From Haplodiscus bocki (Eukaryota), in assembly GCA_965655095.1 (NCBI GenBank), contig OZ296658.1, forward strand, positions 76,384,001 to 76,448,000: DNA of 64,000 nt. The letters are read 5' to 3'. The number at the start of each line of letters is the position of its first letter. Position 1 is the first letter of the stretch. Position numbers and translations under genes: made by a program. This document shows positions 16,353 through 54,400 of the stretch, piece by piece. Under the pieces are notes generated by a model. It had not been told where the DNA came from. It saw only the letters and a program-made list of their open reading frames with translations, and searched no databases.

Positions 16353-16494
16353 TCAATTTGGTTCCGTATAATTACGTAACCATATTTATGTGCGTTGTTA
16401 AAGATACGTATTATATACGTATCCGTATATATGCACAACAGTTAAAATACATAATAGAGTTATATTAAGAGTTCAGTCAATGTTTGAGTTTCTT

Positions 16495-17185: not shown

Positions 17186-17619
17186 AATGATGATTTGTTT
17201 GGAGTTTTGTAAATATGAGAAAATTAGAGATAAGGTTTGAGCTGCTGATATCAACGAAGCGACTGTAAAAAGTGATGACTTAAATAAGAAGTCAGTCGGC
17301 ATCCGTCGCCAAGTGGGAGATTCTTTGAAGTTCCCGCGGTATCACTCTAACTGCTTAAGTCGAATATTTGGCGGTATAACAGGAATTGATAACTTGTAAA
17401 CAAATCAAGGAGTGAGTTTGAGAATGAGGAAAATTTGAGTTTATTTCCTCAAAGTATTCTTGAAAATATGATGGTGATGATGATGATCACGATGACGTCA
17501 TTGCTGGCAGACAAATCGGTCATGATAAAAATTAAGATAATAATGATTTTCATGTATGAACTTATGAATCCACCATGTAATAACTTATTAGCCACGTTCT
17601 TCGAAACAATTCGTGAAGT

Positions 17620-22121: not shown

Positions 22122-22614
22122 CAATTTAACTGTATATTTGTATAAACTTCTCACATTTAGAATTTTAGTAATAGTCTGAATTTATTTAGCATAGCCGTCT
22201 TTTGCATGGGTGAAATGAGTAGGAGATGTGTTGCCGTCCAGGAATTAACCTCGCACTACTGGGAGTACCCGTATGTATTCCGTAGTGTTTCCGGATACAA
22301 AACTTTGGTGAATTTTCTGGAATGGTTCCGGAATGGTCCCGGAATCAAATTTTGGTTGATTTTCCTGAATGATAACGGAATGGTTCCGGAAACGTTCCAT
22401 GTATCGTCTGAGGATATATTGGTGTAATTTGATAAGGATCCGATTCCCAGTCGCTTTAAGTGCCAAAATTTGTGTTACTCTGTCCGTAGTGCTCAGTAGT
22501 TACTTCGGGGGGCCATGTAAGTGCTTGAAAGAATATGTCGGCTTTCCGCATGGCGCATTCCTGGGGTTTCTGGAAAATGTACGTATGCGTTCCGTAGACA
22601 GTTGCTTGACAGAG

Positions 22615-27497: not shown

Positions 27498-27499
27498 AT

Positions 27500-29107
27500 T
27501 CAGTTTAAATTTTGGGCTACAGCCTGGCTATTTTCTTTTGAGTCATTTTGAACAGCTCTTTCTTGGACCTGACTTTGTCTTTCCGGATTTGTCTGCCGGG
27601 GAGGCGGTCTATTGGCTGCATTGACTCCATGATAGCATCTCTCTGTCGAATAGTTTGTCTTACCACATGTCTCACAGGGTGAGTAAACAAATTTTGGCTT
27701 CCTTTCGGTTCTGTTACTGTTCGTGTTGTTGTTGTTAGGATTGTTGACGTTGCCGTTGGGGTTAGACGTTTTGGCATCACTGTTTTTGTTTCCAGGATTG
27801 TTTTGATTATTTTCAGCTTGTTCTCGCTGTTTTTTCAACAATCGGCACTGATTTTTATAATGTCCTGGTTTTTTACAATAATGGCACGATGGTTTGGCTC
27901 TGTCAGCACTTGCATTGACAGTATTGTGGCTCACAGTACTTATTTGTAGCTCGTCAGTGGCTTCCCAACCATTTAGTTCTAGTTCCTTTTCTAGGTGTGT
28001 CACAATCTGTTCATATGTGCCGTTTTCCAAGTGGGCCTGATTCATTGATTTTTTCAGGTGCGGTGGCATCTTGGCATATATGAATTGTTCAATGATGGCA
28101 TGGGCAGCAATTCTGAATGCGTCTTTGGCCAGTTTTTGAAGTTCGTCAAGAAAATCTACTAACTTTTGATTTGCTGGGTTGAAGACAAGTTTTTGGAATT
28201 TATGTTCTGCTGTCGCCATTGATTGGGGTTTTACATATTTCTTTCGAAAAACTGCCAGAATTTCTCCCAGATTCTCTGGGGTAGGGCCATTTATGTTTTT
28301 AAATGTTTGTAATGCATCTCCCCTCATGACAGAATAGAAGTAGTTATTTCTGTCCTCCTCTGTCAACTGATTGTGGATTTTGAGATTCGTTTGGAACAGA
28401 TCTTCAAACAACTCGAACGTTTCAGATTTCCAATCAAACGTTGGCATCGTTGTCGTGAGTGACTTTGGCAATTTGGAAATTCTGTTAATATTGTTAGGGA
28501 AATTTGCAGAATTTTTGTTGTTTGCTAACTGCTGAAGTGCCAACAAAATTTGGTCTGCCTCAATCGTCGCAGGGGTGTTTTCGCTGCGAAATTGGGGTTG
28601 ACTTGTAGAGCGGTTCTTTTTCTGCTTTCCGGAAGAAGTGCTAGGGGAGCAGTACATAACTTTTTCGTGAACTCCTGTCACCATGTCCTGACCAGCTGCA
28701 CTCTCTCTTTGGACTCCTGTCGCCATGTCGTGGCGATCCTCTCGGCCATAGAAGAGGAGGCCTGCTTCACGATGAGGGTTACTCTGGGAGTCATCCTCAT
28801 TCGTTCCCTGGTTTATACTAAACCTATTCCGGGACATCTCCGGAGTGGTTCCGGAGTGGCCCAGGAGTAGTGGGTTCATGAGGAAGTCATCAAGTCTTGC
28901 TAGCGCACCTAGTTTACGATTTTCCGTTCTGCTAGGTTCTTGCGACAACCTTTTGGTGACCCTTCCTTCAATTTCCTCGGAAAATTGAGTTATAGAGTCC
29001 TCCTGTGATCTGGGAACATTTGAGTTTGATGCCAATTTACTGCTGGGATGTTCCTCAAAGTTTTCCTTATTCAAAGCTGCCAGTTTCTTTTTGTTGCGAG
29101 TTGCCAT
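27500..29107 (-). CDS. gag: Gag polyprotein (535 aa) of Gypsy element 1
   Basis: Uninterrupted ORF; capsid-like region (MPTFDWKSETFELFEDLF...); CCHC knuckle CHYCKKPGHYKNQC and a second, degenerate knuckle CETCGKTNYSTERC. Confidence 0.9.
   Translation of the reverse strand: MATRNKKKLAALNKENFEEHPSSKLASNSNVPRSQEDSITQFSEEIEGRVTKRLSQEPSRTENRKLGALARLDDFLMNPLLLGHSGTTPEMSRNRFSINQGTNEDDSQSNPHREAGLLFYGREDRHDMATGVQRESAAGQDMVTGVHEKVMYCSPSTSSGKQKKNRSTSQPQFRSENTPATIEADQILLALQQLANNKNSANFPNNINRISKLPKSLTTTMPTFDWKSETFELFEDLFQTNLKIHNQLTEEDRNNYFYSVMRGDALQTFKNINGPTPENLGEILAVFRKKYVKPQSMATAEHKFQKLVFNPANQKLVDFLDELQKLAKDAFRIAAHAIIEQFIYAKMPPHLKKSMNQAHLENGTYEQIVTHLEKELELNGWEATDELQISTVSHNTVNASADRAKPSCHYCKKPGHYKNQCRLLKKQREQAENNQNNPGNKNSDAKTSNPNGNVNNPNNNNTNSNRTERKPKFVYSPCETCGKTNYSTERCYHGVNAANRPPPRQTNPERQSQVQERAVQNDSKENSQAVAQNLN
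27503..27509 (-). promoter_or_regulatory. -1 ribosomal frameshift slippery heptamer U UUA AAC at the gag/pol junction
   Basis: Gag ends AAT TTA AAC TGA; the -1 frame reads TTT AAA CTG AAT ATG CCA into the pol ORF 27153-27497. A GC stem CTCCGG...CCGGAG lies downstream at 27456-27483. Confidence 0.75.
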
Positions 29108-30024
29108 TCTACGGAAAAGTGTTTTGACGATTAATGATTGGTTGTCTTTTTATTGTAGAGTCAAATTGGTGGTTTACAGTATTAACGTTAGGAAATAAAG
29201 AATAAATGAAGAATAAATGAAGACTGGTTAAGTATCGGCAGTACTTATCAATCAAAAATAATTGTACATTCGTTCTGAAGAAGGTTCAATACAATTCCTA
29301 AGAGTTTTCGAAAAGGTTCTGAAAAGCTCTTGAAAAATTATGAAATGTTCCCTTGAAGAGCTTTCAAAAGTTCTGCAAAGTTCTGTCGAATTCCCCAAAA
29401 GTTCTGATGTTGTACTTTCGTTTCTCCTATTTATACTTTTTCCTGGCGGGAAACATAATTGTTTGCACGCCAAGTCAAAGTACAAATAAGGAAAAGTACT
29501 GTCGAAAGGTATAGCATCAAAGGTAAGAGTGCCGACTCTGGCGGGAAATAAACAACTTTTCCATCCATCTCTTCCCTCATAGGACGCGCCTTTTCCATCT
29601 TTCGACAGAAAATGGATGGTCCTAGTCCGTCAGAGATGGACATCAAAGTGTTTATTCCCGCGCCGACACTTTTGCTTACAGTTCTACAAAAATATTCCGT
29701 AAATGGAAAAGGAAAAAGATTTCCTTAATTGTAAAAATGGATTAAAAAATAAATATGGAAATGCATGACTTTAAATAATATAAATAATCATCACCCTCAC
29801 ATTCACCTCATCAATAACGACAGCTCATTAGTTCTTACTCTTTGGAAATGAAGAGAAACTAGTAGCACTACTAGTTTACTCCTCATTCGTACGAGTGGCA
29901 CTAGTGGATTCCGGAATGATTCCGGATTCGTTCCGCATTCACTAGTAGTGGTCGTATTCTTTGCTCAAATGAGGAGTAGTTCCGGAATGATTCCGGAATC
30001 ACTACAGCGCGGCAGAGTAATAAT

Positions 30025-30309
30025 AGTAGCGACGGAACACGTACGGAACAAATATTCACTCCTAGAGTCAATACACTTGAAATCAGTCGTTGTGCTTATA
30101 GCATCAATTTAATTGTAGTTTCTAATTAAACTGCAATTCGTGCAATCAATCAAACCGTCAGATTCATTGAAAAAGGTCGATTTATATTTAAAAATTAATT
30201 AATTATTTTATTGTAAAAATACCACCTTTGAAGTTAATAATACTCTATGAATACTGGTTTGTTCCGTAACGGTTCCGTCTTAGTCCGGAAAAAATAGTAA
30301 GTATCTACA
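30025..30309 (-). repeat. 5' terminal repeat (LTR-like) of Gypsy element 1
   Basis: Direct repeat of 16095-16352; runs from (a)GTAGCGACGG to ...TCTACA, resembling TG...CA LTR ends; lies ~900 bp upstream of the gag ATG. Confidence 0.8.
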
Positions 30310-33300
30310 TATGCAAGTTTTGCACTGTTCATGATTCGATTCGATAAAAGTGAACTCTTCAGATGAGTGGAGTAAAAGCAAAATATACTTTCTCGATCCG
30401 TTCTTCGAAACTCTCCAGCGTCTACATCGTTGCTCAATCGCAAGAAATTCCAGCGTTTTTATGTCAAAAAAGAAGGATAAAACAGGCAACATTGAATTTG
30501 AAGCTCTTCATTGATGATAGAAAATCAAAAAGGAGGTGGAAAAGAGAACCGCAAAGAAAACACTTTCTTTGCAGCACTGTTTTTTTGATATGAAAGCACA
30601 TGGAATGTAAGGATGTAAGTTTATCTGTTTTTTATTCCAAACGCGGAGGGCGTCAATTTGTTTCATCAGTTTTCCAATTAGAATAATTTCTATATTTCAA
30701 AACTAAAGACATTGAACCACACGCTGTCGAAACACTATTTCCGGGCCAATTTTGAAGAGCACTACTGATTCTTGTTGAAGTTTTGTTTTTCATTCGGATT
30801 CTAAATATAGTCAGTAGACTGACATAAGTGCACCTTACTTTCTCTGAATACGTTTTTGTTCTTCCTGATTGATGCTTTTTTCTCTAAGATGGACTTGCCA
30901 TTGTTTTTTGTTCGTACCCTGTAGCAGTTCCCAAGTGTGACCTGACACTTAGTTAGGTCAAAAATTTGATGCAACGTCAAGGGCTCTCTCGTCCATTTTT
31001 TCTGAAAAAAAATTGCCCAACAAATGCCTCTTGGCCAGACCGATTTGGTCCAACACACGTTGAAAAGGTCAAACAATGCCAACTTCGTGTTTTCTCACCG
31101 AGGTTGTGATATTATAAAACGAATGAGATTATTATTAAATGAGCTGCATTTGCTATCATTTAGTGCTTCATCCGGTTCAATGAGCTGGGATCCATCTTGC
31201 AACATTTCCAAAGTATACTTTCGTCAAGAAACGTGAACTTATAGTGGTTGATATTTTTTGATGTTGAGACGATGGTGTTCAACAAAAGTTAGTTTTTTTA
31301 GGTGTTCGGCTTCAAAGAAAGTGCTCTTCGATTGCTCGGCCTACTTTCTGATTTGCAGTACAGTTTTCTTTTAGAGTCTCTGAACGGCCCGAGTTCGTGG
31401 GCCTTTAATTTGAAGAGTTTTTTGTAGAGTGACACAAACTGTTTCCCATGTTTCTGTCCCAACTAGGCCAAATTTCTAATTATCCTCAACGATGGGCATT
31501 CTGATGGTAAATCTATGATTTTTCTCCAGATTCGGTCTGATTTTGACCGTTTTTAAAATTCAACTGTTTTTAATGAAATTGCACCGAAAGTCTCGAATAT
31601 TGTTGGTGGATTCACTGAGCGTTTTCCAGAGCTGCTTCTTTTTGTTTTGGAAGTTTGAAAATCTTGCGTTATTCTTGAAGGCGTTTCAGTGCAGTCCAAT
31701 TCTGTCATGTTCGTCATTGAAGGGTTACACCTTTCTTTTTCTAAGGTGTTTCGCCAGATTTTTATAATCAACCTTTTCGACCAACTGCTTGAGTTGTACT
31801 GCATGGAGTTTAGCCAATGACTTAATCTCTACACACACTGGAAAGTTTCCCTAACTGAAAATCCTGAAAACCTCCATTACATATTATGTTTCAAGTGGTG
31901 TCTGTTTGAGGAGAGGGGTTAGAAATGCACCAGTCGATGATGCTTCAACCGTTTGTTGCTAGGAAGGCTGGTTCAACTTTATCGAAAACAGACAAGGTTT
32001 CTTTTTTTTACTAACAAAGTTCCCTGATTATTTGCGGATGTGTCCACCCGTTAGATGTGTCCAGCAAACAAATCTACGCAGAACGGCATGCCCGCGAAGT
32101 TGCTGCAGTCGATGAGGTGCGGAGTGGATTTGTATCGATGGGAAAAGATTTGATTCGACTGCCTGCTATTTGGCTGTATGTAAGTTGTGTTGATTTGAAC
32201 CTCTAAATCATGGATGCTCATTGAAAAAAACAGTCATTGTAGATGGATACGAGTTGAAATTTTCTGTTATGTCGAAAAATCTCTCTCTAAACTGTTGCTG
32301 CGCTCTGGTAATTGTTTCAGTTTCAATAAGTTAGTCGCCGACTGCGTCGACGTTGAGAGGAAATTTCAACTAGTTAAAGCACGTGCAGTTTGATTGTTTT
32401 TGGTTGGGAAATTTTGTTCATCCAATTTTGATATACTTGGGGACTCCGTTTAGGTTAAGTTCGAGGAATCATCAAGGCCCACGCTTCATCGCTGTTTTCT
32501 CCCAGTTTGTTGATACGTTGCTGAATTGGTGCAAGTTTTGGCCTTCTACGAACATTGTGTACTGTGGAACTTCGTTCTATGCAAGTTAGACAATCAATTC
32601 AGTCGGCCAAAAGGTTTCCCTTGCAGTTTAAACAATTTATTGGTTTTTAAATAGAAGACCGATCAAAAATGCGGTTTACGCTGCAGTGGCCACAGATTTG
32701 CTTCAAATTGCAGTTTGAGTTGATTTGCTCATATTTTTGGCAGTTAAAACCGCGTCGTAATTAACTTCTCCTGTTCAACTCTGGTTACCATGTAGAACAA
32801 TAAAGTTAATTAAACATTGAGGAATCGTGTGTTTATGATTTCGTCAACAACGCGCTTGTTTCGGATTGAAGAGGTTAACTCGGAGTCATCTGTATCTTTA
32901 GGCAACCTCTTGAGATTGACAATTCTCGTCTGATCTGCTATCGTGTCCGGTTTCTCGGATTCTGCTCCGACTCCCGAAGAATTTTGGTTTCCAGTTCTCG
33001 ATTGCTTCTCTGGCTTCGTTCTCAGTCAGAATTTTGGGGTTATCGGATATCTAAAAAAAGGTAATTTGTGAGAATCTTAAAACCGTCAAAAAAACGATTG
33101 ATTTACGATCGGTCATAAAAGTATATTTATGTGACATGTTATAAATCTGGGCTGTCGAGTTCGATAGCTTTCGCAAAGCAACGGTCGGCTTTCGACAGTG
33201 GGTATGTTTTAACTAAAGATCTATCCGCCGCGTTTCTACGGATGAGCTGAACAAAACCAAAATCCTACCAGATGACGACGAGTTTCGTCCAACAGCATTT

Positions 33301-33989
33301 ACTGATTAAGGGTTTCTAAGCTAGAAGAGGCGGCCATTTGCTTGGTTGCAACAATTCTTCAAGTTTCACGTTAACACGCTAACTCTTTTCTAAAAATGAG
33401 AAAACCTTTTTATTTCTCAACTCTGAAATAACCTCTCATGAAACTCTCCACAATCTTCTGGTTTTACATAGGTTCAGAGGAAGTGAAGAGTGGTGAAAAG
33501 GGTCATCAAAATCATCTATCATCCAAGTCTCAGCCTCAGCTCAACTGCGTCACTTGCACAACAAATCGCATCTCCATCGCGTATCTAAATAGATCTCCAT
33601 TGCAGATGAAAATCTCAACCTCATCTTGATAAATCTCATCTCTCTCCAAAATAAATCTCATCTCCATCGCAATTCAGTTCAACAGAAATTGATTAGCTCT
33701 GTGAATACCTTGTTGAAATTTTTTCTCTCTCGTGGGATTCGCGAAACGCCAACCGTGGTTCGTTGCGAGGGAGAATTACTTCTAGACGGAGCATTTCAAG
33801 AGGAAGTACTGAACGCAGAAACATCGGGGACTGGGTATCGGGGCAGAGGAGATAGAATGCGTGCCGGTTACAGAGGCGGCAGATGCAGAGCCCCAAATCC
33901 AAGAAGACACCCATGAGTGCGCGAATGGTCACAATCGCGAGAGAAGTTTTCTGAATCTGATCGAGAAATGGGATTTCAAAGTGATAGTT

Positions 33990-36900
33990 GCCGGAACTGC
34001 GGTCAACGTGGTCACTGGGCTAGAGAGTTTGAAAATTTTTCAAGTGTGGACGTTCACAACATTTCAGTGGAGATTGTCTGTTTCTAAACTGAAAAAGGCT
34101 GTTGTTGATATTGCCGCATATATGCCCACCAATAAACAGGCCAAAGTAAGAATGACGGGAGAAATGAAGTCAACGACAACGTCAGCGTTATAAGCGACGC
34201 TGCTGATACAACGCAGACTAGCTTTTACGTTGGTGGATAGCAGCAGTGTATCTTTAGTGTGCTGGACTTTTTTACAATCAACGGGTTTCAGTTGGGCATT
34301 GGAAGTCCACAGTTGAAAAAATCTTACAGCGATTAGTACATCAATGCCTGTAAAATAAACAATAGAGCCCATAGTTCTACTGGAAATATTTGCATCCGAA
34401 TTTTGGGCCGCTTTCCTAAAATCGACAGTAGACACATTTCATTGTTTGCTCGAGTTTAATTTTTCGACCAAAAAAGATTGCATACTGTGTGCCAAGGAAA
34501 AAACTCTTCTGTAGGAAGATATGCCGACGTTACAACTGAATGCAAGACCAAAAACGAAGTAGTCAACGTACTTAACATTAGTTTCAACAAGAACAGTTCC
34601 AGGTAGGAGCGACAAGTTACTGCAATGCGTATTAAGAAACGAAGACGTTTCGTAAATTTGCTACTACGAAGGAATGGTTACTCCATTTGAATTTTTCCAT
34701 GTTTTCAGTGCGTTCTGGGTATCACAAGAGCCAGTTAGCGATAACGCGGGAATATTTAGGGTACGTTAATCAGTTTTTCATGAAGAAGATAGTGTTACAT
34801 ACAGAAACTTCCGAGTCTGCTTGCTTCAAACTTTTGAGTTTGAGCATCGAACATTTTCTGTACGAACAGAACCGACAGAAGTCGCTGGAAAAGTTCAGTT
34901 TCGAGAAACCCGTTAGAATTGATGGCCAGCACTTGTTTTTACCTGATTTTAATAAATAAAAATGTTAATTGAAAAAGTTGCGAAAATCTTTTCGAAGAGT
35001 GCAAGCGACTTATGACTTCTGTTTCAGTAATCAAATAGAACAGGAAATCAAATTGAAACCGGACGCGAAACATTTTCGTGGCACATATGGTAAAATGAGT
35101 TGTGACAAGGGAGAAGCAATGAAAAAAATTGTGGAGAGACTAGCGTACCTAATCACTCTAACACACTCCGATTGAGCTGTTTTGAGCATACTGGTCCCTA
35201 AAAAAGATGGGAGGTACCATTTGATCATAGACTATCGTGGACTTAACAAGCAAAAAAAACCTGATGGCCTCTTCCAAAAATTGAATACGTGGTTGATTCT
35301 TCGGAACGAAGTATGTTTTTTTTGAGCATTGATTTAACGTCAGGATTTTTTCAAATGGTTTTGAAAGGGGAAAGCCAAAAGTTAACAGCTTTCAATACTC
35401 CAAGGGGACTCTACAAGTGGACACGACTACCAATGGGACTGGCATCTGCACCTGGAGCATTCCAAAAACTAATGGAATTTGCGTTGAGTGACCTTTCTTA
35501 CCAAGTTGTCTTGGTGTATTTGGACGACATAGTTGTATGCGGAAAAAGGTTTGAGGAACATTTACTACGTTCGGAGCAAGTTTTTGCGCGACTCGAGGAA
35601 AACAGTCTCAAGATGGAAAGTTCTGATCGTAAAACTTTCCAGAGAAGAATTCATGTTTTGGGGCAAGTTGTGCAAGAAAAAGGAGTGGTAGTGGATTTAG
35701 AAATACTGGCAGCAGTAGAAAAATTGAAATCACCAAGCAATTTGAAAAAATCACGAGCAGTGCCGGGTTTAGGTGTTTTCTATAGCAAGTTTACTTCGGG
35801 TTTCGGAACAACTTCAGATTTTCCACACCTACTACTGAAGAACGAGTAGATTTTTTTTGGACAAAGGAGTGCGAAGATGCATTGCAAGATTTGAAAGAGA
35901 AACTTCTATCAGCACCTATCCTGGACTACCCAAACATCCGCGATGAGTACACTTTGTTCACAGATGCAATTCTGACTGGTACCGGTGCAATTTTGACTCA
36001 AAACCCAAAAGGAATCAATTGAGTTATTGCATATGCAAGCAAGAATCCAAAAAAGCCAGAGCAACTATTCCGCAACAAAACGTGAGGTTTTTGCTGCTGT
36101 GGTTCACATTAGGAATTACATCAGGACTTACCTGATATGTCGGAAACTTGTAATTATCACAAACCATCGAGCATTGGTGTGGCTGTATAGTCTCAACGAC
36201 CCCAAAAATGTAAATACAAGATGGCTTGAAGAGTTGGGATAATTTAACTCTGGTATAAGACATAACACTGGAAAAGACATACCTCATGCGGATTGTCTGT
36301 CACCAGTTCAAACTTTTGAGAATGACATAACGATGTTTGTGACCGCTTTAATGAGAGTGACACAGGAACTGGAAGTGATACAACTAACCCATGGAAAGTT
36401 TTTGAAGTCACTGACCGGAAAAGCAGCGAAATGAAATAGAAACACGATGAAAACCCAACCAAAGTCTTTATTTGGCTAGGAAAAAACAGAGACCCATAAG
36501 ACAGGAGCCTGAAATGAATTCTGGAAATTCTTGGTTGATTTTTAAAAAATAGAAATGTTGATGGACTTCTCTATAAGAAGGAAAAAATGAAAAAGTGGAC
36601 AAGTAAGGCAGCAATTTCTTGTTGCTGAGACTTAAAATTCACAAATTTTATTTTGTCTCCATGAATCTCCGTGTGCGAGACATTTTGGTATCGAGATCAC
36701 TTATCAATGGGTCCAAAAGCATTTCTTTTCTTCTGGCATAAATGGTGTTGTCTGGGACTGGGTTGATAGCTGTGATCAGTGCCCGGGAAGGAAAGGAACG
36801 CCGCAAAAACAGAGACACAGTCTCACAACCTGGCAGCCTAGTCATCTTATCTGTCAAGTATCGCTAGACGTGATGGGGCCCTTACCTGTTTCGGAGGGAA

Positions 36901-37700
36901 CTTAGTACTATCTTGTAATCGGTGAACAGTTCAACTAATGGTAAGAAGCCGTAGGGATGCAAAACAAAGACAATTAAACAGTTGCCCTAGCTTTGGTCGA
37001 AATGTGCATAACTAGATTCGGCTGCCCTGTCCACCACCACAGTGATGAGGGAACGAACTTATTGTCTAAACACTTCCATGCACTTTGTCGGACTCTAAGC
37101 ATTGAAAGGATTTCAAAAACGTCGTTTCACCCTGAAGAAAATGCAGTGATTGAAAACACGAATAGACAATGGGAAGAATGCCTCTTTAAATATGTAGATG
37201 ACCATCAGGAAGAGTGGAAAGGTTATCTTCAGCTGATAATGATGGCCTACCGCTCTTACGTTTACGCAGAATCAAAATAGAGCCCTGCCTACGTGGTGCT
37301 AAGTACGCCTCTGATACTGCCGATTGACTATATGTACGACACGCGTCCTACAGAACACTTCCCGACACCAAGCAATTTTATCTTCAATACGAAGAGAGAA
37401 ATGCAGTGAGCACACCAAATGGTGAGACCAGAATTGGCGGCAGAAAAGCCTCGCCAAAAGACATATTACGATTCTCCTGCTTATGGTCCTACGTACAGTG
37501 AAGGAGAGCAGGTTCTTGTTTTCTTTCTAACTCTGAAAAAACCAAAGACAAAAAGGTCACGTCTTTTTACACGAGACCTTACACCCTCCTTGAGAATGTT
37601 AACTATCGAGACTTTTGCGTCCGTAAAAACGGAATGAAGAAAATTTTAAATGTGCATTACATGAGATTGGAGAAGTACAAAACTCGAGAGCAGTTTTTCG
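33990..37700 (+). pseudogene. pol: gag C-terminus + pol remnant of Gypsy element 2
   Basis: Knuckles CRNCGQRGHWARE(F) and CGRSQHFSGDC (~33990-34078); protease TLVDSSSVSLV (~34226); RT LVPKKDG, IDYRGLN, IDLTSGFFQ, LPMGLASAPGAFQ, YLDD; RNase H LFTDA, YSATKRE; integrase HES...HFG, CDQC, SLDVMGPLP, HSDEGTN, HPEENAVIE. Many stops and frameshifts. Confidence 0.9.
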
Positions 37701-38151
37701 TGCGAATGAAAAAATTAGCAGGCGTCAGCAACAGGGGGCGACTTCTTCAGTTGAAGAACGGTTGACGACCTCGTCGAAGTGAAGGTGGAAGACAAAAAAC
37801 TACCTGACCACGCAAAACACAGGGTGGCAGCAAACGAAGCAAACCTTGAGGAATGAGCACCCCAATGCATACAGAACGAAATCCCAAATATTAGGACTAG
37901 CAAAGACTCGGATAGGAGCATCAGTCTTGCCTCTGGCGAATTATGGTCTAAAAGTTTCGGTAAACCAAGCGCAAGTGCGAAAAACCTACGCTAAAAAAAG
38001 TAGGAAGAAGTCCGTACCACCACTTAGCGAAAAAATTACGCATGCTTGCTCGTTACTAAAAAGATTTGTTGACTATTTCGTCTATAGTGACAACGATGAT
38101 AATGATGATAATGGTGTTGTTTCTGCTTCAAGAGGCACGTGAGATGTAACA

Positions 38152-40050
38152 ATGGACAAAAACGGAGAGTTGAGCAATCAATATAAACACCTGATTGCAT
38201 TGCTTCTGATTTCGTTTGCCTTCAGCGTGTTCGCGATCAGCGATGAAATTTTAACAGTGGGCTGTTATTTCGAGCAAATCGTAACTAGCTCAGTGTTTTC
38301 CTTAAGTGACCAACAACAATGCTCTCAAGACTCGACGGCCAGTACCAATATAACTGAAGCAACAATTTTCCCTCATGAAAACAATTTTGAAGTAGAGTTA
38401 AGTCTCTGTTACTTACCAGGTTTCATATGCGGTAGCAAAAATAAAAAAGTCTAACGGATTTGACGACGGACTTTATTTGCACCACTAATTGAAAATACTA
38501 CCGACTTCTTACGGGATACTTTTTGAAACATGCCAATCAGTATGCGTCGGAAGAAAGTTCATGTTACCGGGGTTTGAAAAAGAGGAATTTCAAATCAGTT
38601 GAACCGAAATTAGGAAAAAAGAGCAGGCCAAAACGGAAAAATGGAAACAGTTGAGACTTTTGATTACTCAGGTACGTTTTTGAAAGGACAAGTGAATGGC
38701 ATAGGCTATGCTCACCCTGTGGAATGGAGAACACCACCAGGTGACACTATCGCCGGATCTGTGTTAATCAATGGGAGACTCACGATAGTCAAGCTGTACG
38801 CCAAAAAAGAAATGCAACCTGAGGAATTTTTTCCCTGGCATTACTTTTTGGGAATTATGTTTCGAGGTCCAATTTACTAAACGATTTTGAGCATGATCTT
38901 GTGGTTTACTTGACGACGAACACCACGAATAGTTTTTGGTCGAAACTTGTAGCAATTACGGAAGACAACAAAGCAATAATTTTTCAAGGAGAAAAAAATA
39001 TTTTACTAACAGTTTTCTCTAGTTCGAAATGTAATAACTTTTTGCCGTTGAGATCGACAATAAACTTCTAAATATTTGCAATAGAACCCTCTTCACGACA
39101 CTCGCTCAGGAAGTATCTGTCAGTTTCCAGTTAATTGGTCTACCCAAAGCCAAATGTAACGCGCTGGACCAGACAATGATCATAGAGAGGTGGTTGGAAG
39201 TTGTCTATGCGCACAGGTTACAAGAAAAGGAAGATATGTGGGTTGAAATTTTTTTTTCAAAATTGCCAAATGGATCAACTAAGAACTCAAATTAAGCTCT
39301 CACTTACTTTTAACTTGGACAATGCAGTCTGGCGAGTAGGAGAGAAAGTATACTTCTTAATAAAATAAATTCTAAAGAAAAATATTTCCTAATAAAAAAT
39401 TAAAAACTTCTTAAAATGAAGACAAGTGGAGTAGTCTTTTTTTGATAGATGTGCAAAGGTCGACGCTACAAATGCTGAAAAAATTTTGCACAGGAGAAAT
39501 GCCCGTTCTATCGAGGCAAAGTAAAGAAACGGTGCTTAAGTGTTTAAACCCCATCACATCTTTTCATCAGTATTATACTTTGACTGAATGCAATCCTCTC
39601 TAACCTAAGTTGATGAAACATCGGAATGGCACATCGATTGCCTTCAGTGAGAAGAGCGAGATCGCTTGCGTTGAACCAGTGTTAATGTACAACGAAACGA
39701 GACGAAAAATGAGACACCACGAATTCCTCGATTTGGAAGCAAATGGACTGTTCACAATGGAGCACTTTTACAGGTGTAGTTGAGCGGGGGCATAGCAGAA
39801 ATACTATCGAAAGTAGAGAGTGGCAGTATTCACACGAGCGGTTTTTTTCATCTGAGTATACCACATCGACAGCTGGGTTTCAGCTGGGCTGTTTCCAAAT
39901 GTTTTGGAACTGTGAAAAAGGACACATTGTTGCTCTGGTGGACAACCAGGAAAATTGCATTAACCATCCTAACTTTAACATTGTTAGGTACTATGTTACG
40001 CTCTTCGGAAATCTGTCTTCATTATTCAGCTAAAACAACTGTGAAATAAA
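38152..40050 (+). pseudogene. Env-like glycoprotein remnant (signal peptide, Cys-rich ectodomain, C-terminal hydrophobic segment); resembles chuvirus/herpes-gB-type class III fusion proteins
   Basis: N-terminal hydrophobic signal LIALLLISFAFSVFA followed by Cys residues and an N-x-T site. At 39447-39620, RCAKVDAT...CTGEMPV...LNPITS...TLTECNPL*P. Hydrophobic IALTILTLTLLGTML near 39960-40000. Lies directly after integrase. Confidence 0.55.
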
Positions 40051-40381
40051 GCTCGTTTCACTCTACAGCCGTTGAACTTGATTTACCGGTATATTCAGTA
40101 TCTGGTAGTGGTCCGGGAAAGAAGCAAGAAGACAGTAAACAGGAAAACGGCGTGTTTGTGGAGACAAAACACCAACATAACGACTGCGTAGAAGGCTAAA
40201 AGCATAAGATAACAACTTAAACGTGTTTTGGAGTTGAGGTTTTTTTTTAAATATCGCAAGTAATCTAGCTTTTGTTTTGTTCAGAATTGGTTGAGGGACG
40301 CAAAAAAGAGGAGGTCTACTATTCACCAGATCTCTACCAAACAAAATTAGGAATGGCACCAGGACTGCACCGGGTACAAAG

Positions 40382-40967
40382 ATGTATTTCTGGGCATCGG
40401 CAACTTGCTCCCGAGGACGCTGTGAGTCCTGCAAAAATCAATTCAAGAGCTTATGTATCTCCAACTTATTGGGGTTTGACATGATGGAAAATGAGGCATT
40501 AGGAGAACAGCTTAGATCGGCTGACTTGCCCATCAATGTAAGGAAACATGAGCAAGGGCGGCTTCAAAGGATTTGAGTTCGCTGTAAGAGCCGAACGAGA
40601 TAGAATAGAACGATTGACGCAAAACCTGCACAAGCAGCACATATTGGTCAAATGCGAGAGAAGCAGGGCAAGAATAGCAGAGAAATTGGTTCACCAAAAG
40701 AAACAAACTAGCCTTTTACAACAACTTTTCAGGCTGAATGAGGTTTTGTTCGTCCATGAAAAAGATGACGTACAGAGAATTACAAGGCACAGCAGAAAGT
40801 TGTCCGCTATGGCCCGTCCGGATGTCGGATGTTGCGAAGACGTTTTCAAAACCATACACCGAGCCTTTGCAATTTTGAGCCATGAGAAAACCAGAAAAGT
40901 TTGTGATCAAGGAGGCTTTGAAAAAGCCGAGGACGAGTTTTTGAGAGAGAACAACAGGAGTGATTAA
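40382..40967 (+). pseudogene. J-domain (DnaJ/Hsp40-like) accessory ORF inside Gypsy element 2
   Basis: LNEVLFVHEKDDVQRITRHSRKLSAMARPDVGCCEDVFKTIHRAFAILSHEKTRKVCDQGG follows the J-domain pattern (Y.vLgv...I...yrkLa...HPD...F..I..Ay.iLs....R..YD..G). HPD appears as RPD (CGT vs CAT) and YD as CD (TGT vs TAT). A probable N-terminal part lies in ORF 40382 via a frameshift near 40570. Confidence 0.65.
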
Positions 40968-42899
40968 GTGGAGTGGGCACTTCCTCCACAAACAAATTTG
41001 TCGACGGCAATGACTTTCTCTGGTAGAACGCAGGACGTGTGAATACTTCCAAATTTAAGTAAAAGGTGCGTTTCAACTTTTTGTTAAAAATTCAAATCTA
41101 CTGAATTTTTCCCTTCAATGGGCTATGTTCAACAAATTAGAAACGAGAGATGTCAACCCATTGTCGACAACAAATTGCAAACATACCAAAAACAAACTGG
41201 TGCCATTTCTATGGTTTATGAGCTCTCTGTTATTTAAGGAAGCATCCCAATTTTGGCTAAATTGTTTACTACCTCCCAGAATGTTTCGTAGTGAAGTCAG
41301 AGAAGATTGAAAGTGTCTTCGGTGCTGGAAGTGAACAGAAGAAAGCCCGAATTGTTGCAATTATTGGGACGTTTCATCCCTAGTCGTAGAATGAGGGGAG
41401 AGAAATGAAATAGGCAGGTCTTGCTGCTATCGGAGAAGAGAAGACGAAGGCACTAGTGACCATTGAGAACTATACATTTGGAAGGACGCAGTCCATCACC
41501 GCCAACTGACGCTTGACCGACAGTTGAACATAATCACTAGCCTGAAGACAAATGTGCAGGGTGCCGAGTCTGATTTCATTGCAGCGGTGGAAGAGCTCGA
41601 TGAGCAGGAGGAACAATAGCGAAGCTTTTTCGAGCCGCTGAAAATTCAGCAAGTCACCGTTGGGACACCAAATTGTGAATTCAAAGCTCGCGACAATGCA
41701 CCAAAATGTTTCTCAGTTTGTACCAACAGCTGATGCTGTCGAATGACGCTCCAATAGATTCAAATACAAGTAGGTTACGGAACCTGAGCCTATCGTTTCA
41801 CTCAAACCTGGGAGAAAACTCAAGAACCGTTTGTCCGGCTACAGTGGTCTCGCTGAATTCTTGCCAACCCAGGCGCTCGCAATGTTCAAGAACTCGAGGG
41901 ATGGGAAGCCGCAGACCACGTTGTCAGCTTCAAAAACAACATAGATTAATGAACTTTGTTATCGCTTGGGCGTCAGTAGAGGACTATTTTTCTCGCCTTC
42001 CCTTGCTTTGTTCTTGTTTCTTTGTTTTGCTGCGATTAAGGTGACTTCTCTTTCTGAAGGGAACATTATGGGATTTTAAAAAAAAAAGTTATTTCGGAGA
42101 AGTTTCTAAAGCGTCAATAAAAACCATTGCTTTACGCTCGGTCAAAAAAAATTATGACATGTCATAACTCGGGGCTGTCGAGTTCGACAGCTTTCGCAAA
42201 GCAACTGTCAGGTTTCGACAGTGAGTATGTTTTGACAAAACAGGTGGTCGTCGAGTTTCAACGGATGAGCTGATTAAAAGCATAATCCTGCCAGATTAGG
42301 ACGTTTCGCCCAAAAGTATATACTGATCAGGGGTATATGAGGTGAAAGAGGAGTCGGCTAAATTCTTGGTTGCCTGAGTTCCTCAAATTTCTTTTTACAA
42401 CGCTAACTGTCTTCTTAAAGTAAAGAAACTTTCTTATATCCTAACTCTGAAACAAACTCTCAAGAAACTCTCCACAATCTTCCTGTTCTTCCGAAGTTCA
42501 GAGGAAGACTAAAGAATGAATTTTACTCCATGCAGTTGCGTTGGCGTACCAGAGCCTTCTCGGTAGGAAACTTTTCGCAACTTCTTTTTTGATTGCGACG
42601 CTGTTTCAAAAAGGTGATGCTTCTGTATTTGTTAGAATTTTGAGTGGAGATCAAAACGAGGTTTTTTCCTTTGTCTCGAATGGCCGTGGAGGCTTCGTTC
42701 CAGCTGGTGAGTAAACTCCAGCATTTTTCTGTCGGTGAGGACGCTCCACTGAGGTCTTCAATTCGTCGAATTTTGTTTGAGAATAACGAGTCGGCTTTGG
42801 TTTTTTTGTTGTTGTTCTTGTTTGTCTTTGCTTTTCGAAGTTGAAGTAGCAGGCAGCTCAATTAAACTGGTAGCGTTCAGTAGTGCCTTGCAAGCGTAG

Positions 42900-43698
42900 T
42901 GGATAGAGTTTCATTTGTGTATTACAAATGGATCTTCATGCTCATTGTTGTCGCTTCCATTTTGACACTACGTTGTCGCATTACGTTGACCAGCGATCTC
43001 ACGTAGAACATGCACATATCAAAAAAAGTAGCGAAAGCAAACGGTGTTCTCTACTTACTAAGAAGAAATGTCTCTCAATCTGTAGGCGCTCGAATCAAAC
43101 TCGGACTCTATAATTCCCTAGTCTTACCCATTCTTCTCTATGGTATCCAGTGCATTCACCTGTGAAAACGGTCAATGATCATTCTAGAAAAACTCCAGGA
43201 AAGAGCCGTTAAGTGGATATGCGGAACAGGAAAATATGGACAACAACTTCGCTTTCTGAACATTCTGCCGTTGCCTATGCACATCCAAATTTTGAACCTG
43301 CTTACCTTGTCAAACTTTCGTACCAACTTTTGTACCAGCAACCCCACAACTGGGACTCTTTTACAGAGTCAAACTGCGCCCTCAACAAGCAAAGAAGTCT
43401 TCAAGCTTCCCAAAACTAGAACTGAAAAGGCGAGGAACGAATTCGTGTTCAGAACTTCCCGTCTGGCAAACAGAGTCAATCAACACGCAAACTTCGAGGA
43501 ACCTGTTGGACTGAAAAGACGTCTGATCAAGCTATTTTGGACGGTCGTGGAAGCTACCTACGACGAACTCAACTCCTGCACCTGGCTGATTGCGTGCGAC
43601 TGCCAGAACTGCAGGGAAAAGTGGACAATTTTCTGAACTCAACTCGGGATCAAACTCCCCTCAGTTTACTGTAAAGCCTCAACAACAACAACAACAAC
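42900..43698 (+). mobile_element. 5'-truncated CR1/L2-clade LINE 3' end with (CAA)n tail
   Basis: LYNSLVLPILLYG, LEKLQERAVKWI, LRFLNILPL and the terminal CDCQNCR are typical post-RT ORF2 sequence; ends in caacaacaacaacaacaac at 43680-43698. Confidence 0.8.
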
Positions 43699-45080: not shown

Positions 45081-45176
45081 TTGAAACAATGTTCAAGTTT
45101 CTGATGCATTGCGACTTCTGACACGTGACTTCTAATGCATAGTATGTATTGGCTTGCCATTTTTTTCAGTTCAGCA

Positions 45177-45471
45177 ATGGGGAGAACAGTAGCTCGTTTA
45201 CGTGTGTGCGCGGACGCTCAACAAGGTAGTAGGCGTTATATGGAAGATTTTGTGGATCTCAGATACGAAAAAGATAAAAACGGCAACACGGTCGCATTTT
45301 TTGCTGTGTTTGATGGACATGGTGGTAAAGAAGCTGCTCTTTTCGCGCGGAATCGAATGTGGAGTAATTTGAAACGGCGCACATCCTTTTACTCATATTG
45401 TCCTAAAAAAGTGTGCAAAACAATTAGCGATGTCTTCCTTGACACACATGAATCAATGTGGCCACATAGAG
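45177..45471 (+). CDS. PPM1D: PPM1D-like coding exon 1
   Basis: ATG at 45177 just after an acceptor-like ttttttcag (an upstream non-coding exon is possible). Encodes [24 protein letters not shown]...FDGHGG...MWPHR; donor G|GTAAGT at 45472. Confidence 0.9.
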
Positions 45472-48400
45472 GTAAGTCAAATGGATTGTTGACTGTTACA
45501 TCTACCTTCTTAATGTGGTATTAGTAACAACTGGAATATAAAACTAATTGTTGTGATAAACTTATTAAATAGATATAATGAATTTCGGGGCAGCCGTGGT
45601 GGCCCTTGATGATTAATGTTGATTGTTGGAGCAAGTTCCCTACACAGTGCTCTAAATACCTTAAATCCTGATTGGATAGAACTCGCCGAAAAACTGTCAG
45701 AACACGTTTACAGTAGCGGTGGAATCTGTCTTCATCCCGACGCCAAAAACCGCAAGTATCTGCAAAATATCCTCAAACAATTCGACCCTGAAGAGAAAGT
45801 AATCGTGTGAACCGACGTGCTCAATAATACGATTACAAAACACCCATACGAGAAGCGAAATCCTCTCACGTCTGCTGAACTTTTGTCCGATATAAGAGCC
45901 CTCCCACAAATTGCTTGTATAATTTACTGTGTACGCGAAGGTGCTGATGACATCCATATTAAATTAAAAACGCTCCCAATTCCTATTGTTCACGTCGTCA
46001 AAGACTTAATTTCAAATTCAAAACTAAAAGACAAATTCGAAACCAACGGATATAAAGAATTACGTCAAGATCATACCTTGGAATTGCATTCCCTGGAAAT
46101 TGTTGCGAATAACGGCTTTGACTTCAAAAGGCTTTTGTTGAAGAAACGGAGGCCGGAAAAGAAGCAACGAAAAGCGAAGCGAAGTAAACTTGAAAATCAA
46201 GAGCAAGACTGAAATCGAATGTGAGTTTTTCTAATTCTTGTTCGGAGACTGGATTTAAGTGTCCGGACTTTTGGGCATAAAAATCCCCTTGATACTCCCT
46301 TCTCTCTTCACCCCCCACCATGAACAAAAATTGCGCTACCTGCAAGAAGGCTATTAATGCTAATACCAAAAAGTACGTCTGTGTATCGTGTACTGTGCAC
46401 ATGCATCTCGAACCAAGCTGCACAGGGCTCTCTCAAGTGGCAGTCAATGGCATCATGGAGCTGGGACAGCTTGCAATGCTACTCTGCAACAACTGTGTGA
46501 GCAATAATGAAGGCGATAACTTTATAAGATGCCGATCATTTGAAAATGAACGAGAAAATAGAAGGAGAAAGGCACGAAATTAATGAACGTCCCCAGAAAA
46601 TGGAGACACGATTAACAGCATGCGTGGACGCAAAAGTAGACAAGGCCATCAAAGCAACATGCGAGAAAGTGGACAAAAGATATGCTGAAGTCATGGCCGT
46701 TCAGCCAAAAGAAACAAGCAACGCCCATACTCGGGCACCAACCAAAACGATGTCTGATGGATCTCAACATCCGAAAGAAGTGTAAGAATTCAAGGGGTAC
46801 CAGAAGACCCTGAGAAATCAAAAGCCGAAAATCTTGTCCCCACGACCGACGTGGTGAACGGAATCCTAGAAGGAATGGGCGTGACGTCCCACATAACCGA
46901 ACTATGACGACTTGGGAAATTTGACTCTGATAGAAAGAAGCCTAGAACGTTAATGCTAACATTGTCAACCGAGCATGAAGGAAGACTGGTCTTAGTGAAG
47001 TCATTTGAAAGAAATAATGATCTGAAAGACAAAGGTATTTTGTGCTGCCGGCGTTATCTGAAGAAGTTTCAAGAAAGGAAAACTTGTGCCTCAATAAACG
47101 ACGTCAATTTATCGAACAAAATGTGCCGCGTGAAAAATTGAAGATTCGCAATCTAGAGCTCTACAACGACGGAGTCAAGGTCGCCATTGAGGACCCGGTC
47201 AGCGAAAGCTGACTAGGTTTTCTGAACGTTCTCCAAATGAATGCCAGAAGTCTCGTCAACTTTGATCGGAGAATGAAGTTCGCAAACGCCATAAGACTTT
47301 CTGACTGTAACGTTGTTTGTATTTGCGAGACTTGGTTAAACGAAAACATAGAGTCAGCTGAAATGCTGCTGCGCAACTCTACTATATACCGCTCAGAATT
47401 GACACTACAAAAAGACATGAACACCCATGGTGGTGTTATGGTAGCAATAAAGAACAGCATCAACTGTGAACTGCTAAACACTGATCAACCTGACTGCTCT
47501 ATGACTTGCAACCTTGAAATCTATAATCAAATAATCTATATTTGTGTTTTCTATAACCCTCCAAATTGAAACGGATACAGATAGGTCAAAGAAGATTTCG
47601 AAAAACTGATTGCAGCCGTTCCGAAAACGAAAGCTGCTCTGACATGCGGAGACTTCAATTTTCCGAATACAAATTGGAGCAACTTCAGTAGTGAAGACGA
47701 GGAAACACAATCGGTCCTAGAACTGTCTGAAAACGCTCTTTGCCAACAAGGAGAAATGTAGCATTCAAAGTGAATACTTTCATTAAACTCGGATCATGCA
47801 AATCGCTTATAGTACCGATCCTGGTCTATGAACTCGATTGCTTAACACTAACCAAATATGACCTTCAAATTCTAGAAAAATTTGAAAGGAAAGTTGTTAA
47901 ATGGATAACGGGGCAGTATGAAGACTACACGAACCAACTGCGGCTCTCGAACATTCTTCCACTGCCAATGTACCTCCAGCTGAACAATCTTCTAACGCTC
48001 TCAAAATTGGTCAAGGAAAATAGCGAACATATTGACCTACCTGAAATTAACGAACAAAGAGGAAGAAAAACCGAACTCTTCAATCTACAGAAACGAAGAA
48101 TCGAAAAAATCAGAACTGAATTTGTTTATAGAAACTGCAGAATAGCCAACACAACTGACAATGAAGTGAACTTTTCGAACCCGAAAGGGATGAAAAATCG
48201 ACTGCTGGAACTGATGTGACAGTATGTTGACGGCAAATTCTCAACAAAACAGCTGCATTTGGCAACTCTGCTGTGACTGTCACAAATGCAGAATTATATG
48301 GACAATTTTTCAATGAAGATACGAGGGAGAGTGATCCATCGACGAAAAATTGTAAATCCACAACAACAAAGCGGTCCGAGTAACTTCAATAGTCACATCG

Positions 48401-51400: not shown

Positions 51401-54400
51401 GAATGCAACTGAAATAGTATGAGCTCTCAGAAGCTTCAAAATTTTGTTTTTTTCTCGAATTTTTTTTGTGATAAGAACTTCTAAAAAAATCACTGAAGTT
51501 GGCAAATTTGCTGTAGAATGCGTATCAAATGATTTTATTTTTTATAAAATGTCTTTTCCACCTTAATTGTGATGTTTGTTGCTAAAAATGTAGAAATTTT
51601 TCAAATTTGGAAAAAATAGAAAAAAATGCTGCGAGTGTTCATGAAAAAAAACGCTTCTATCTTTTTAAAAGGCATTTTAACCAAATGGGAAAGCGGAAAA
51701 TATACCAGTGGTAGCCGGCCGTCTTGTTTTAATTCAGCTGAAAACTTGAAGCGAAAATCTTCAAAAACCTTTGACCAAATCTCGGGATTGAAAAAGTTGT
51801 TTTTCAAACATGTAAAAAAAGCCGATGATTAGAATCACCTTTGTTACGTGCTTACTGAGATTTTAGCTTAGTATTGGTTTGCAATATTTTTTCAGGGCCC
51901 AATAATTCATTGGTGTGTTTTCACAATTGCAATAATTTATTTTTACAGGACAATATATTTTTGTTCATTATTGGAGTCTTAGTAGTGTATTGTTCTACAA
52001 TATCTAACGTCCCTGTAATATGCTTTACGGGTTCTTTAAAGAGCAACATTGAATGAGTCCAAGAGAAAGATAGCCCAGCATCTTGGCACTGATAGCCCAG
52101 CATCTTGGCACTGATTTATTATAACTAATTTTGATTTCAGTTGGAATCGATTGGAGATTTTTTCAACTTTCTCTGGGTTTTATTTAGAAAAATGGCCGAT
52201 GACTGAGTCAGGGTATGTGAGTACTTCTGGGTGCACGGCCAGTGTCGTTGTCATCAAAGGTTCGCATGTGTTTGTGGCACATGTAGGAGACTCTTCTGTG
52301 GTGCTGGCAGAAAACTGCGGAAACTCGACGCTAGATGAACCTGTTAATGCCAATATGGTTAGCCTTTATGGCTGCTAGCAATTTTAGACCGCGGCAAAGA
52401 TACTTACCGTAAAACCTGTAATTGAAGGCCATGGCCTTCTATTTTTCAACCTTCTCACTAGGGTGGCCTTCTATTACAGGTGGCCTTCAATTACAGGGTG
52501 GCCTTCTATTTTTCAACCTCCTCGCTAGGGTGGCCTTCTATTACAGGTGGCTTTCAATTACAGGTTTTACGGTAGTCGACGAAGTGCGTAGTAACGTATT
52601 TAGCAAATTCTCTGCTGTAAATTGCTCTGACTGCACAATGCTCTACATAGCAGGCGTGATATTTGTTTCGAAAGTTATCTCCAAAAAAGCTTTCAGCAAG
52701 AAGTCACTTTTCAACTTTTCTTGAAGTTTTTTATTAGGCATTAGCACCAGATTATTGCCATATAGTTTTACTTTCTTCACACATCTAGAACAAAATGTTA
52801 TCACGATCTATCTGTGCTCATTTTTAGAACCGCGTGGATGTGAAATTAGTTCTTCCCGACTAATGTATTTGGAAAGTGAAAGTATTTATTTACTTTATTT
52901 AACTTTCGCATACTTTTTGATTTCGTTCATTGAATTCAATCCCTGTTGTTTTACTAAAACTTAATCAAGTTTCATGGCGTTTTCGTCTTCTATTGTAATT
53001 GAAAATCAGTCGTTTTACTTGCTATTTATTGGTTTGTTTCTAGTTTTTGAATATGCAGCTTTCATAAGCATTTCTTGCTGCTTATGTTGATTTAATGCAA
53101 TTTTTTGATCCGATTTAAAAATGCGTGGTTGAGATGGTTTGAATTTTGTATTTGTTTGAAATTGCTCGAGTTGAAAATTACTAACAGCGTTTTTGAAGAG
53201 GTAGAAGCTTGTTATTTTTCGCCGTATATGAAATATACAAGAAAAATTATTCATTCAGTACAGTGTACAGTGGGGTCAAATTTCTTTTTCTTTTTTTTTC
53301 AGTGCAAAACTGCCAACTCTTTTTATTCAAAAATAAATGACAGCAGTAGGGTTAGGACAACAGCGTTCTCAAGCAGTAGGTTTGGGGTTCGAGTCTGTCG
53401 TGCCAAATATTTTTACGATTTATCCCTAACCATTTTCTATACCCGAATTTATTGAATTACTAAAGGATTCACCCACGAACTTTTTCGGGACTGTGAGACA
53501 AAAATTTTTCGACGGAATATCTTGATACTCCCCCCCCTCCTCCTATCCAAACTTTTTCGCTACCGGAAATTAATGCAACAGTAAAGGATTTCCCTACGGT
53601 AATTTTCGGCACTGTGAGACAAAAATTTTTTGACGGAAAATCTTGATACTCCCCCCCCCTCCTTCGTATCCAAACTTTTCCGGTACCCGAAATTACTGCA
53701 ACAGTAAAGGATTCCCCTACGAAAATTTTCGGCACTGTGCGACAAAAAACTTTCGTCGGAAAATCTTGATACTCCTCCCCTCTTATCCATAAACTTTTTC
53801 GCTACCGGAAATTTTCTGAAGCACAGCACAGAAGGGTTCACCTGCGAATATTTTCGGCACTGTGAGACAAAAAAATTTCGACAGAAAATCGAAAATCGTG
53901 ACATAACCCTCTGAAGCATAAAATTTTTCGATACCCGAAATCAGTGAAACACTAAAGGGTTCCCCTACGAAATTTTTCGGCACTGTGAGACAAAACATTT
54001 TCGACGGAAAATCTTGATGCCCCCCTTTCCCCCGTCTCTTATCCCTAGCAGTTTTCGATAGCAGACTTTTTCTGAAACACAGAAGGGTTCCTCGAGGGAA
54101 TTTTTTGGCACTGAGAGACGAAAATTTTTCAAGGGAAAATCGTGATACCCTTTTGCATAATGTACAGAAATCAGTCGTGGAATTGATATTTGTAAAAACT
54201 CTTTGAAAACTAATATCAAAACAGTTGTTTTGTTTTTAACCGCTTGCAAAAGTTGATCAAAATATTTGTAGTTGGACGAAAAATATGCTGGTGCTAGCCG
54301 GCCGTCTTGTTACTTTTTTGAATCATTTTTCTTTTTTGGCCGATTTTGCAATGTTCTCACTTTCTCTTTCTGCCGCACTGGAGTACTGCTGGGTGTTAAT

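Follow-up and report, generated by a model that had tools for sequence, protein, structure and literature searches.

A selected J-domain gene behind the envelope gene of Gypsy retrotransposons in Haplodiscus bocki, as predicted from a decayed copy and its young relatives

The decayed element and its genes

The window, i.e., the whole analysed stretch of 64,000 nucleotides from Haplodiscus bocki (contig OZ296658.1, positions 76,384,001 to 76,448,000), contains on its forward strand a decayed, LTR-bounded Gypsy element at 33041-42513, from which gag has been deleted. The 5' LTR (33041..33489, +), whose ends were set from other copies, matches positions 42080-42507 at 76.8% over 436 nt and pairs with the 3' LTR (42067..42513, +), the edges of which were also taken from the family copies. 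The LTR termini of this family read TATA...TATA in the better-kept copies, and the LTR end ...CTATA, in place of the usual CA, is common to the old family of the window and the young J-bearing families described below (window; L103/L104, L118/L119). A putative primer-binding-site-like TGGTGA motif was recognized by its sequence next to the 5' LTR (33490..33506, +), and at this place the young families have TGGTGACA, a primer-site-like motif common to the old and young J-bearing families. The gag deletion point (33643..33684, +) was located by comparison with other copies, with about 1.4 kb missing: the 40 nt left in the window correspond to 1406 nt in a copy on C1, and tblastn with gag hit 12 of 40 copy loci and nothing in the window. 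The broken pol (35265..37765, +) encodes reverse transcriptase, RNase H and integrase in the Ty3/gypsy order, with the Pfam hits RVT_1 (E=1.9e-21), RT_RNaseH (1.4e-10), Integrase_H2C2 (1.5e-10) and rve (0.0025). This succession between LTRs, by which Ty3/gypsy elements are recognized, was thus found in the window element, and the protease and gag of the same layout were seen in the young relatives and in other copies. A short purine tract, common to the copies, lies ahead of the 3' LTR (42056..42063, +); in the flanks of the element 2 of 4 bases of a target site match, and one old copy has a 4-bp flank match as judged by eye.

Behind pol lies a broken ORF3 (38152..40049, +), which by profile-profile alignment likely encodes a gB-type (class III) envelope. 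An alignment of the ORF3 copies (50 rows, some of the loci overlapping) matched a profile of 58 gB-type (PF24664) envelope proteins with E=2.5e-4 and a probability of 43% over 204 columns in hhalign. In a comparison of thin alignments, the gB type was reached at E=0.016 with colinear cysteines and the F type at E=0.75, while the best hmmsearch E value of ORF3 against gB-type envelopes, 0.014 with 0.83 for the reversed control, was not significant. A signal-peptide-like start and a hydrophobic C-terminal stretch were noted by eye at the ends of ORF3. No hit was obtained in a Pfam scan of the ORF3 pieces, and none at E 0.1 in a tblastn search of the old copies with gB-type envelopes. An F-type envelope was rejected for this ORF3, as four young envelope proteins gave no tblastn hit in the window or in 40 copy loci; a single-sequence fold of ORF3 (pLDDT 32) was discarded.

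The next frame, ORF4 (40287..40967, +), had its frames set from the stop-codon columns of 40 copies and comprises an N-terminal part, a coiled coil, J-domain 1 (J1) and a short acidic tail; in the window two frameshifts, near 40470 and near 40557, disrupt it. The earlier note on this DNA had placed a DnaJ J-domain at 40734-40916 (+), and the window frame 40542-40967 does match PF00226 at its residues 67-122 with E=9.7e-5 and 22.8 bits, yet under the curated cut-off of 27.8 bits, which is passed by another copy of the family (C5:81077043) with 51.4 bits. Lack of a PF00226 hit even for a consensus had been named beforehand as evidence against a J-domain; a hit was found. The best PDB match of J1 in the window is DNJ-12 (E=0.0023), and the other top relatives are the J-domains of Sis1 and DNAJA1. 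The motif, which reads RPD at 40815, had been taken for a decayed HPD, and this reading agrees with the other copies (H in 28/38, P in 25/38, D in 24/39), as does that of the CD further on as a decayed YD, Y being the commonest residue there (15 of 36 other copies). The coiled coil ahead of the J-domain and the lack of an intron were likewise borne out, a coiled-coil-like segment and the J-domain standing in one frame. The stated position between an env-like gene and the right LTR holds insofar as the gene follows ORF3, although the word env-like is itself only moderately supported. The cysteine cluster CSRGRCESC, said to precede the J-domain (40406..40432, +), had to be given up, and with it a zinc site, because the comparison of stop columns puts it off-frame and outside the protein of the family. 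Between 40270 and 40470 the frame of the cluster has 6 codon columns with a stop in at least 30% of the copies, versus 0 in the frame of the family, and 22 of 30 copies have Phe in place of the middle Cys. The frame call in this N-terminal part rests on the stop columns, since neither frame has a third-position excess there.

A second J-domain, overlooked in the earlier note, was found in the window element at about 41712-41955. It belongs to a broken ORF5 (41150..41955, +) of uncertain start, which contains a coiled coil at about 41552-41690 followed by J-domain 2 (J2; 41712..41955, +); the latter is frameshifted, its motif is decayed to HSN at 41799, and it was recognized by genome matches and by PF00226 on a copy. 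A genome search with J2 gave 90 matches, the window's own at 41818-41946 with E=3.8e-4, while J2 of another copy hits PF00226 at E=7.8e-6, and the HPD of J2 is intact in 11 of 27 readable copies. With RPD at 40815 and HSN at 41799, an intact HPD is absent from the window copy, which is the dead remnant of an old family with two J-domain genes.

The window contains several further features. A second Gypsy element of 14 kb lies on the reverse strand at 16095-30289, with LTR parts 81-85% alike, gag at 27500-29149 and pol at about 22600-26800; about 6 kb of GC-richer sequence between its pol and the far LTR have no explanation, and its reverse transcriptase groups with those of the gB-envelope families. 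An exon at 45129-45524 (+), 2.6 kb from the J-bearing element and probably of a host gene, has the motifs RRYMED and FDGHGG, which we take to be those of a PP2C-type phosphatase. Fragments resembling a LINE endonuclease and C-terminal region were noticed by eye at 43166-43636 (-) and 47213-48219 (+), and a repeat of about 122 bp forms two arrays in opposite orientation, 44 kb apart (8160-9545 and 53285-54311).

Copies of the old family and its young relatives

The genome contains at least 113 matches to the J1 frame of the window (150 of 205 candidates scored), most of them with stops, and among the matches listed no full-length J1 relative is closer than 52%. In the best 29 other J1 matches, the family's pol lies within 10 kb upstream in 23, ORF3 is present in 25, the second J-domain downstream in 23 and an LTR in 27. 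The core claim of the earlier note, that the J-domain is a stable cargo of a Gypsy element, is therefore sustained by at least 113 matches embedded in colinear elements; of the accompanying check for other copies linked to pol and env with an intact HPD, the linkage was confirmed, whereas the HPD of J1 is intact in just 9 of 38 old copies. A single processed pseudogene of a host DNAJ gene was rejected on the number of matches, on the longest A-run after the stop (5) and on the identity to host J-domains of 27-48%.

The 40 copies of the window's family have a mean identity to the window of 72.6%, LTR pairs 69-91% alike were found in 12 of 20 old copies (one of 13 hits, a simple repeat, being left out of the count), and the reverse transcriptase tree of the family is star-like, so that the family represents an old, apparently extinct burst. 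Its coding history is visible in the third codon positions, the diversity of which over the coiled coil and J1 (40560-40964) is 0.341 vs. 0.290/0.261, with 0 of 2000 permutations as high. The excess was also found for J1 alone (p=0.0005), the first half of J2 (p=0.0065) and the integrase core (p=0.0005), and was not found in the LTRs (p=0.22 and 0.56), in three of the four ORF3 pieces or in the N-terminal part of ORF4. At the motif columns of both J1 and J2, the most frequent residues are H, P and D. However, the intact fractions given above are close to the expectation of neutral decay, and the HPD is kept no better than the other residues of J1 (mean modal fraction 0.67); thus, selection on the HPD is seen only in the young relatives and in the comparison of J1 with J2.

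The young relatives came from a genome search with PF00226 (150 of 666 candidates scored), which gave sets of at least 8, 8, 22 and 13 hits with identical scores. The representatives of these sets are gag-pol-env-ORF4 elements, several with every frame open; the LTR pairs agree at 99.5% and 99.8%, and both copies checked have target duplications of 4 bp. The envelope of these families is of the F type, with Baculo_F matched at E=1.8e-7 in one of the four envelope proteins scanned, those of families C and D having 69-73% identity with this protein in the part searched and that of family E being alike by eye. The DnaJ scores of young ORF4 against PF00226 are 33.9-53 bits in five of five families, all above the cut-off, and Pfam gave only DnaJ and coiled-coil-type hits on this protein. 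Between RNase H and integrase of young pol a Macro domain was observed (L101:375-5621, E 0.027; L107:1149-5942, 1.6e-4; L113:1321-6258, 6.4e-6), so that the young elements carry two host-derived domains, this one and the J-domain of ORF4. At G000:C10:69551000-69564848 (L117) five family D ORF4 hits with a spacing of about 2.7 kb form a tandem array of the J-gene region, and in L103 and L118 (families A and B) most of env is gone while ORF4 and near-identical LTRs are kept.

The HPD is invariant in 18 aligned young rows at 21-60% protein identity. Since the J hit itself had served in part to select these rows, two J-independent picks were made. In the pick by the N-terminal part, 92 of 178 database proteins match and 27 of them reach the motif, with HPD in 21; the database relatives number 35 in one search and 256 in another at E up to 1e-10, generic DnaJ included. 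In the pick by the envelope only, for which 19 loci were drawn from 144 matches so as to take in unseen families, a J-bearing ORF4 stands behind all 19, of which 13 have HPD, 4 a changed motif and 2 an unreadable one, and in the families new to that search HPD was found in nine of nine. The proposed dN/dS check, run on ORF4 of the young relatives, gave 0.12, 0.24, 0.42 and 0.27 for four within-family pairs. Between the families dS is saturated and pN was used instead, amounting to 0.31-0.56 for ORF4, 0.27 for env and 0.10-0.17 for the region of reverse transcriptase and RNase H. As judged from these comparisons, young ORF4 is under purifying selection and its HPD is kept.

An AlphaFold model of young ORF4 from the 18-row alignment (pLDDT 72.5) has a small beta-barrel at residues 9-62, followed by a disordered Pro-rich linker, an 85-residue helix, the J-domain and a CCG...CxxC tail. 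The modelled J-domain aligns with that of Ydj1 (Z 9.0, rmsd 2.0, 74 residues aligned), and its four-helix fold was recovered in the models with Z 9.0-9.4 and rmsd 1.2-2.0 to the J-domains of Ydj1 and ERdj5. The N-terminal barrel of the whole-protein model matched UBE2O 331-385 (Z 7.0, rmsd 1.8, 52 aligned), with weak sequence rows for Tudor and Spt4/5 (E about 0.04), which suggests a common SH3-like fold and nothing narrower.

Trees and exchange of modules

In a tree of reverse transcriptase and RNase H (18 rows), the window's family and the young families A-E are joined with a bootstrap of 100, and three gB-envelope families with the other Gypsy element of the window stand on the opposite side of this branch; the tree was rooted at the midpoint, with a thin outgroup and rows built on one young reference. 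One locus without coverage of the reverse transcriptase was left out of the RT tree. The phylogeny against host DNAJ genes, as proposed in the earlier note, was built with 14 host J-domains, the partial host J exons being dropped; it sets the elements apart from the host, albeit weakly (63/43). Within it J1 pairs with J2 as its sister (93/87), and the young J-domains cluster together (99/96). By hhalign, no homology to the barrel of young ORF4 was detected for the N-terminal parts of old ORF4 and ORF5 (E=0.16 and 0.74). The simplest history is a single ancient capture, with an envelope change and a duplication afterwards, and there may have been two separate captures of a J-domain, both being allowed by the undetected homology of the N-terminal parts and the weak separation of element from host.

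Exchange of modules is seen in the young families A and B (L101/L102 vs. L105/L106), which are 98.8% alike over 8.9 kb and share gag-pol-env, while the ORF4 proteins agree at 56% and the LTRs are largely different. The near-identical backbones with differing ORF4s indicate that the 3' module was exchanged. Elsewhere in the genome, intact multi-copy families with a gB-type envelope have a non-J fourth ORF or none that was seen, and therefore the J gene is dispensable for replication in general. The fourth ORFs of young gB-envelope elements include L183:266-1351 (-) of 362 aa, coiled-coil-like by eye, and L199:2597-3364 (+) of 256 aa; no HPD J-domain was seen in these two.

Predicted role of the ORF4 protein

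A splice-acceptor-like motif, a T-rich tract followed by TTCAG, lies at the 5' edge of ORF4 (40268..40284, +). YAG stands there in 15 of 22 old copies, with an equivalent motif in all five young families A-E, and the fraction of pyrimidine upstream of the site in the old copies is 0.68 vs. 0.43 +/- 0.13 at the conserved AG columns generally. Families B, C and E have no ATG in frame shortly downstream. In a projection-based ranking the site falls outside the top 8 of 217 YAG columns, and contigs of four runs of unknown type from one study, compared with a young copy, had no GT..AG joint among the 14 listed, which is uninformative either way. From the motif and the lack of a near ATG we infer that ORF4 would be made from a spliced subgenomic RNA.

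The intact ORF4 protein is probably an element-encoded co-chaperone recruiting the host Hsp70, and the selection on HPD in the young relatives supports this predicted recruitment. In J proteins, the HPD with helix II stimulates ATP hydrolysis by Hsp70, which clamps the client presented by the rest of the J protein. By analogy, the ORF4 protein, translated from the spliced RNA and devoid of a signal peptide, would be cytosolic or nuclear; its coiled coil and N-terminal part may bind the client, on which the HPD would trigger ATP hydrolysis by Hsp70, as with the J-domain of the SV40 T antigen. The T antigen is described as depending, for virus-specific activities, on the J-domain that it carries itself (PMC9867986). 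Among the complete single-frame Hsp70 sequences of the host, the best one found was the ER form.

As to the client of such a co-chaperone, a host restriction or silencing factor is slightly favoured over the element's own Gag or Pol particle, since ORF4 evolves faster than env and reverse transcriptase, was swapped between near-identical backbones and is missing in the sister families. A small-RNA target of ORF4 is conceivable, as a J protein can link Argonaute to HSP70 (PMC11194074). A fuller picture, which we put forward as doubtful, is that of a clade-wide T-antigen-like accessory protein made from spliced RNA, whose barrel and coiled coil would grip a silencing or restriction complex (e.g., PIWI/Argonaute) while the J-domain turns Hsp70 on it, the gene having been kept through an envelope swap, duplicated and exchanged. 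The self-directed form of the co-chaperone reading, namely assembly or uncoating, where the coiled coil would bind Gag or Pol and Hsp70 would remodel the virus-like particle, is a tentative but serious possibility. Hsp70 and Hsp40 are used in assembly by many viruses, and the presence of the gene in 19 of 19 F-envelope loci sampled, as well as in a family with another envelope type, fits a housekeeping need; dengue virus, for instance, needs host J proteins (PMC9867986). However, the swap of ORF4 between A and B on a 98.8% alike gag-pol-env is hard to square with tight co-evolution with Gag, and the evolution of ORF4 faster than env and the sister gB families without a J gene speak against it as well.

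An effect without a specific client, with a decoy or dominant-negative J protein tying up Hsp70 and blunting the small-RNA loading of Argonaute/PIWI or the stress responses, is considered unlikely. It would fit the lack of the G/F, zinc-finger and client-binding regions of class A/B DnaJ in ORF4, as well as the duplication of the gene in the old family, as expected from a dose effect; but the young proteins keep the SH3-like barrel and the CCG...CxxC tail, which suggest specific partners. The closest solved J-domains are those of DNJ-12 and DNAJA1, of which DNJ-12 is described as linking an Argonaute to HSP70 in miRNA loading (PMC11194074); yet the same source has DNJ-12 not binding the PIWI protein PRG-1 (PMC11194074), and the closeness to DNAJA1 is a generic J match. 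That the J gene was taken from the host as a fragment and has hitchhiked without function is very improbable. In favour of it, all the copies of the window's family looked at are decayed, stops occur in most of the at least 113 matches, and the score of the window copy is under the Pfam cut-off. Nevertheless, the best host J-domain is just 27-48% identical, families between which dS is saturated still have open frames, HPD and a dN/dS below 1, and the old family has its third-position signal and no poly-A. Functionless hitchhiking is thus largely refuted by the third-position signal, dN/dS and the envelope-only pick.

Among the known systems, the errantiviruses and other env-carrying Ty3/gypsy elements (Chary and Hayashi, 2026, PMC13524379) have gag-pol-env between LTRs, as here, and the F-type and HSV-gB-type envelopes are found both in that survey and in the present genome (PMC13524379). 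Some errantivirus clades are described as mixing F and gB envelopes (PMC13524379), as the J-bearing elements probably do; the present elements add one or more J-domain ORFs after env to the organization given there (PMC13524379). The words "DnaJ", "J domain", "chaperone", "accessory" and "downstream of env" are absent from the available text of the survey (PMC13524379), and "DnaJ" and "Hsp40" from the available content of its seven supplements. The SV40 large T antigen, as described in PMC9867986, shares with ORF4 a mobile-element-encoded J-domain joined to other domains, without the client-binding regions of class A/B. It differs in belonging to a DNA virus and having its J-domain N-terminal and helicase-fused, whereas in ORF4, a retroelement gene of its own, it lies on the C-terminal side of the coiled coil, and the resemblance to DNAJA/B J-domains also sets ORF4 apart from the T antigen. 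Bdelloid LTR retrotransposons have a GDSL esterase, a DEDDy exonuclease and a dUTPase as extra ORFs (PMC5408684), a host-derived modular cargo as in the present case; those described there are enzymes in the ORF3 slot (PMC5408684), while the present elements retain env and have a co-chaperone domain behind it. The best sequence matches, the J-domains of DNAJA1, DNJ-12 and Sis1 (PDB 2m6y, 2och, 8eod), share even the YDxxG end of helix IV, but ORF4 lacks the G/F region, the CxxCxGxG zinc finger and the C-terminal client domain of these proteins. With its J-domain C-terminal and not N-terminal, ORF4 falls outside the class A/B DnaJ (Hsp40) proteins, and its architecture is class C-like. The earlier note knew of no Gypsy family with a J-domain cargo, and none was found in the literature covered, with Repbase, GyDB and the subscription journals outside the scope; the mentions of DnaJ in PMC9004415 and PMC12924346 are unrelated to such a cargo, and PMC6431247 has none.

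What the sequences point to extends beyond the window: an accessory J-domain gene under selection throughout a clade of envelope-type Gypsy elements. Accessory genes, a hallmark of complex retroviruses, are little known from the Gypsy elements of invertebrates. The conserved J gene provides a handle, with a simple activity assay and partners open to pull-down, for which the young families offer natural intact ORF4 proteins, and the choice between retrotransposon counter-defence and particle assembly becomes a testable question. The piracy of J-domains would extend from DNA and RNA viruses to retroelements, and the T-antigen-like reading, if true, would mean a retrotransposon-encoded, chaperone-based counter-defence.
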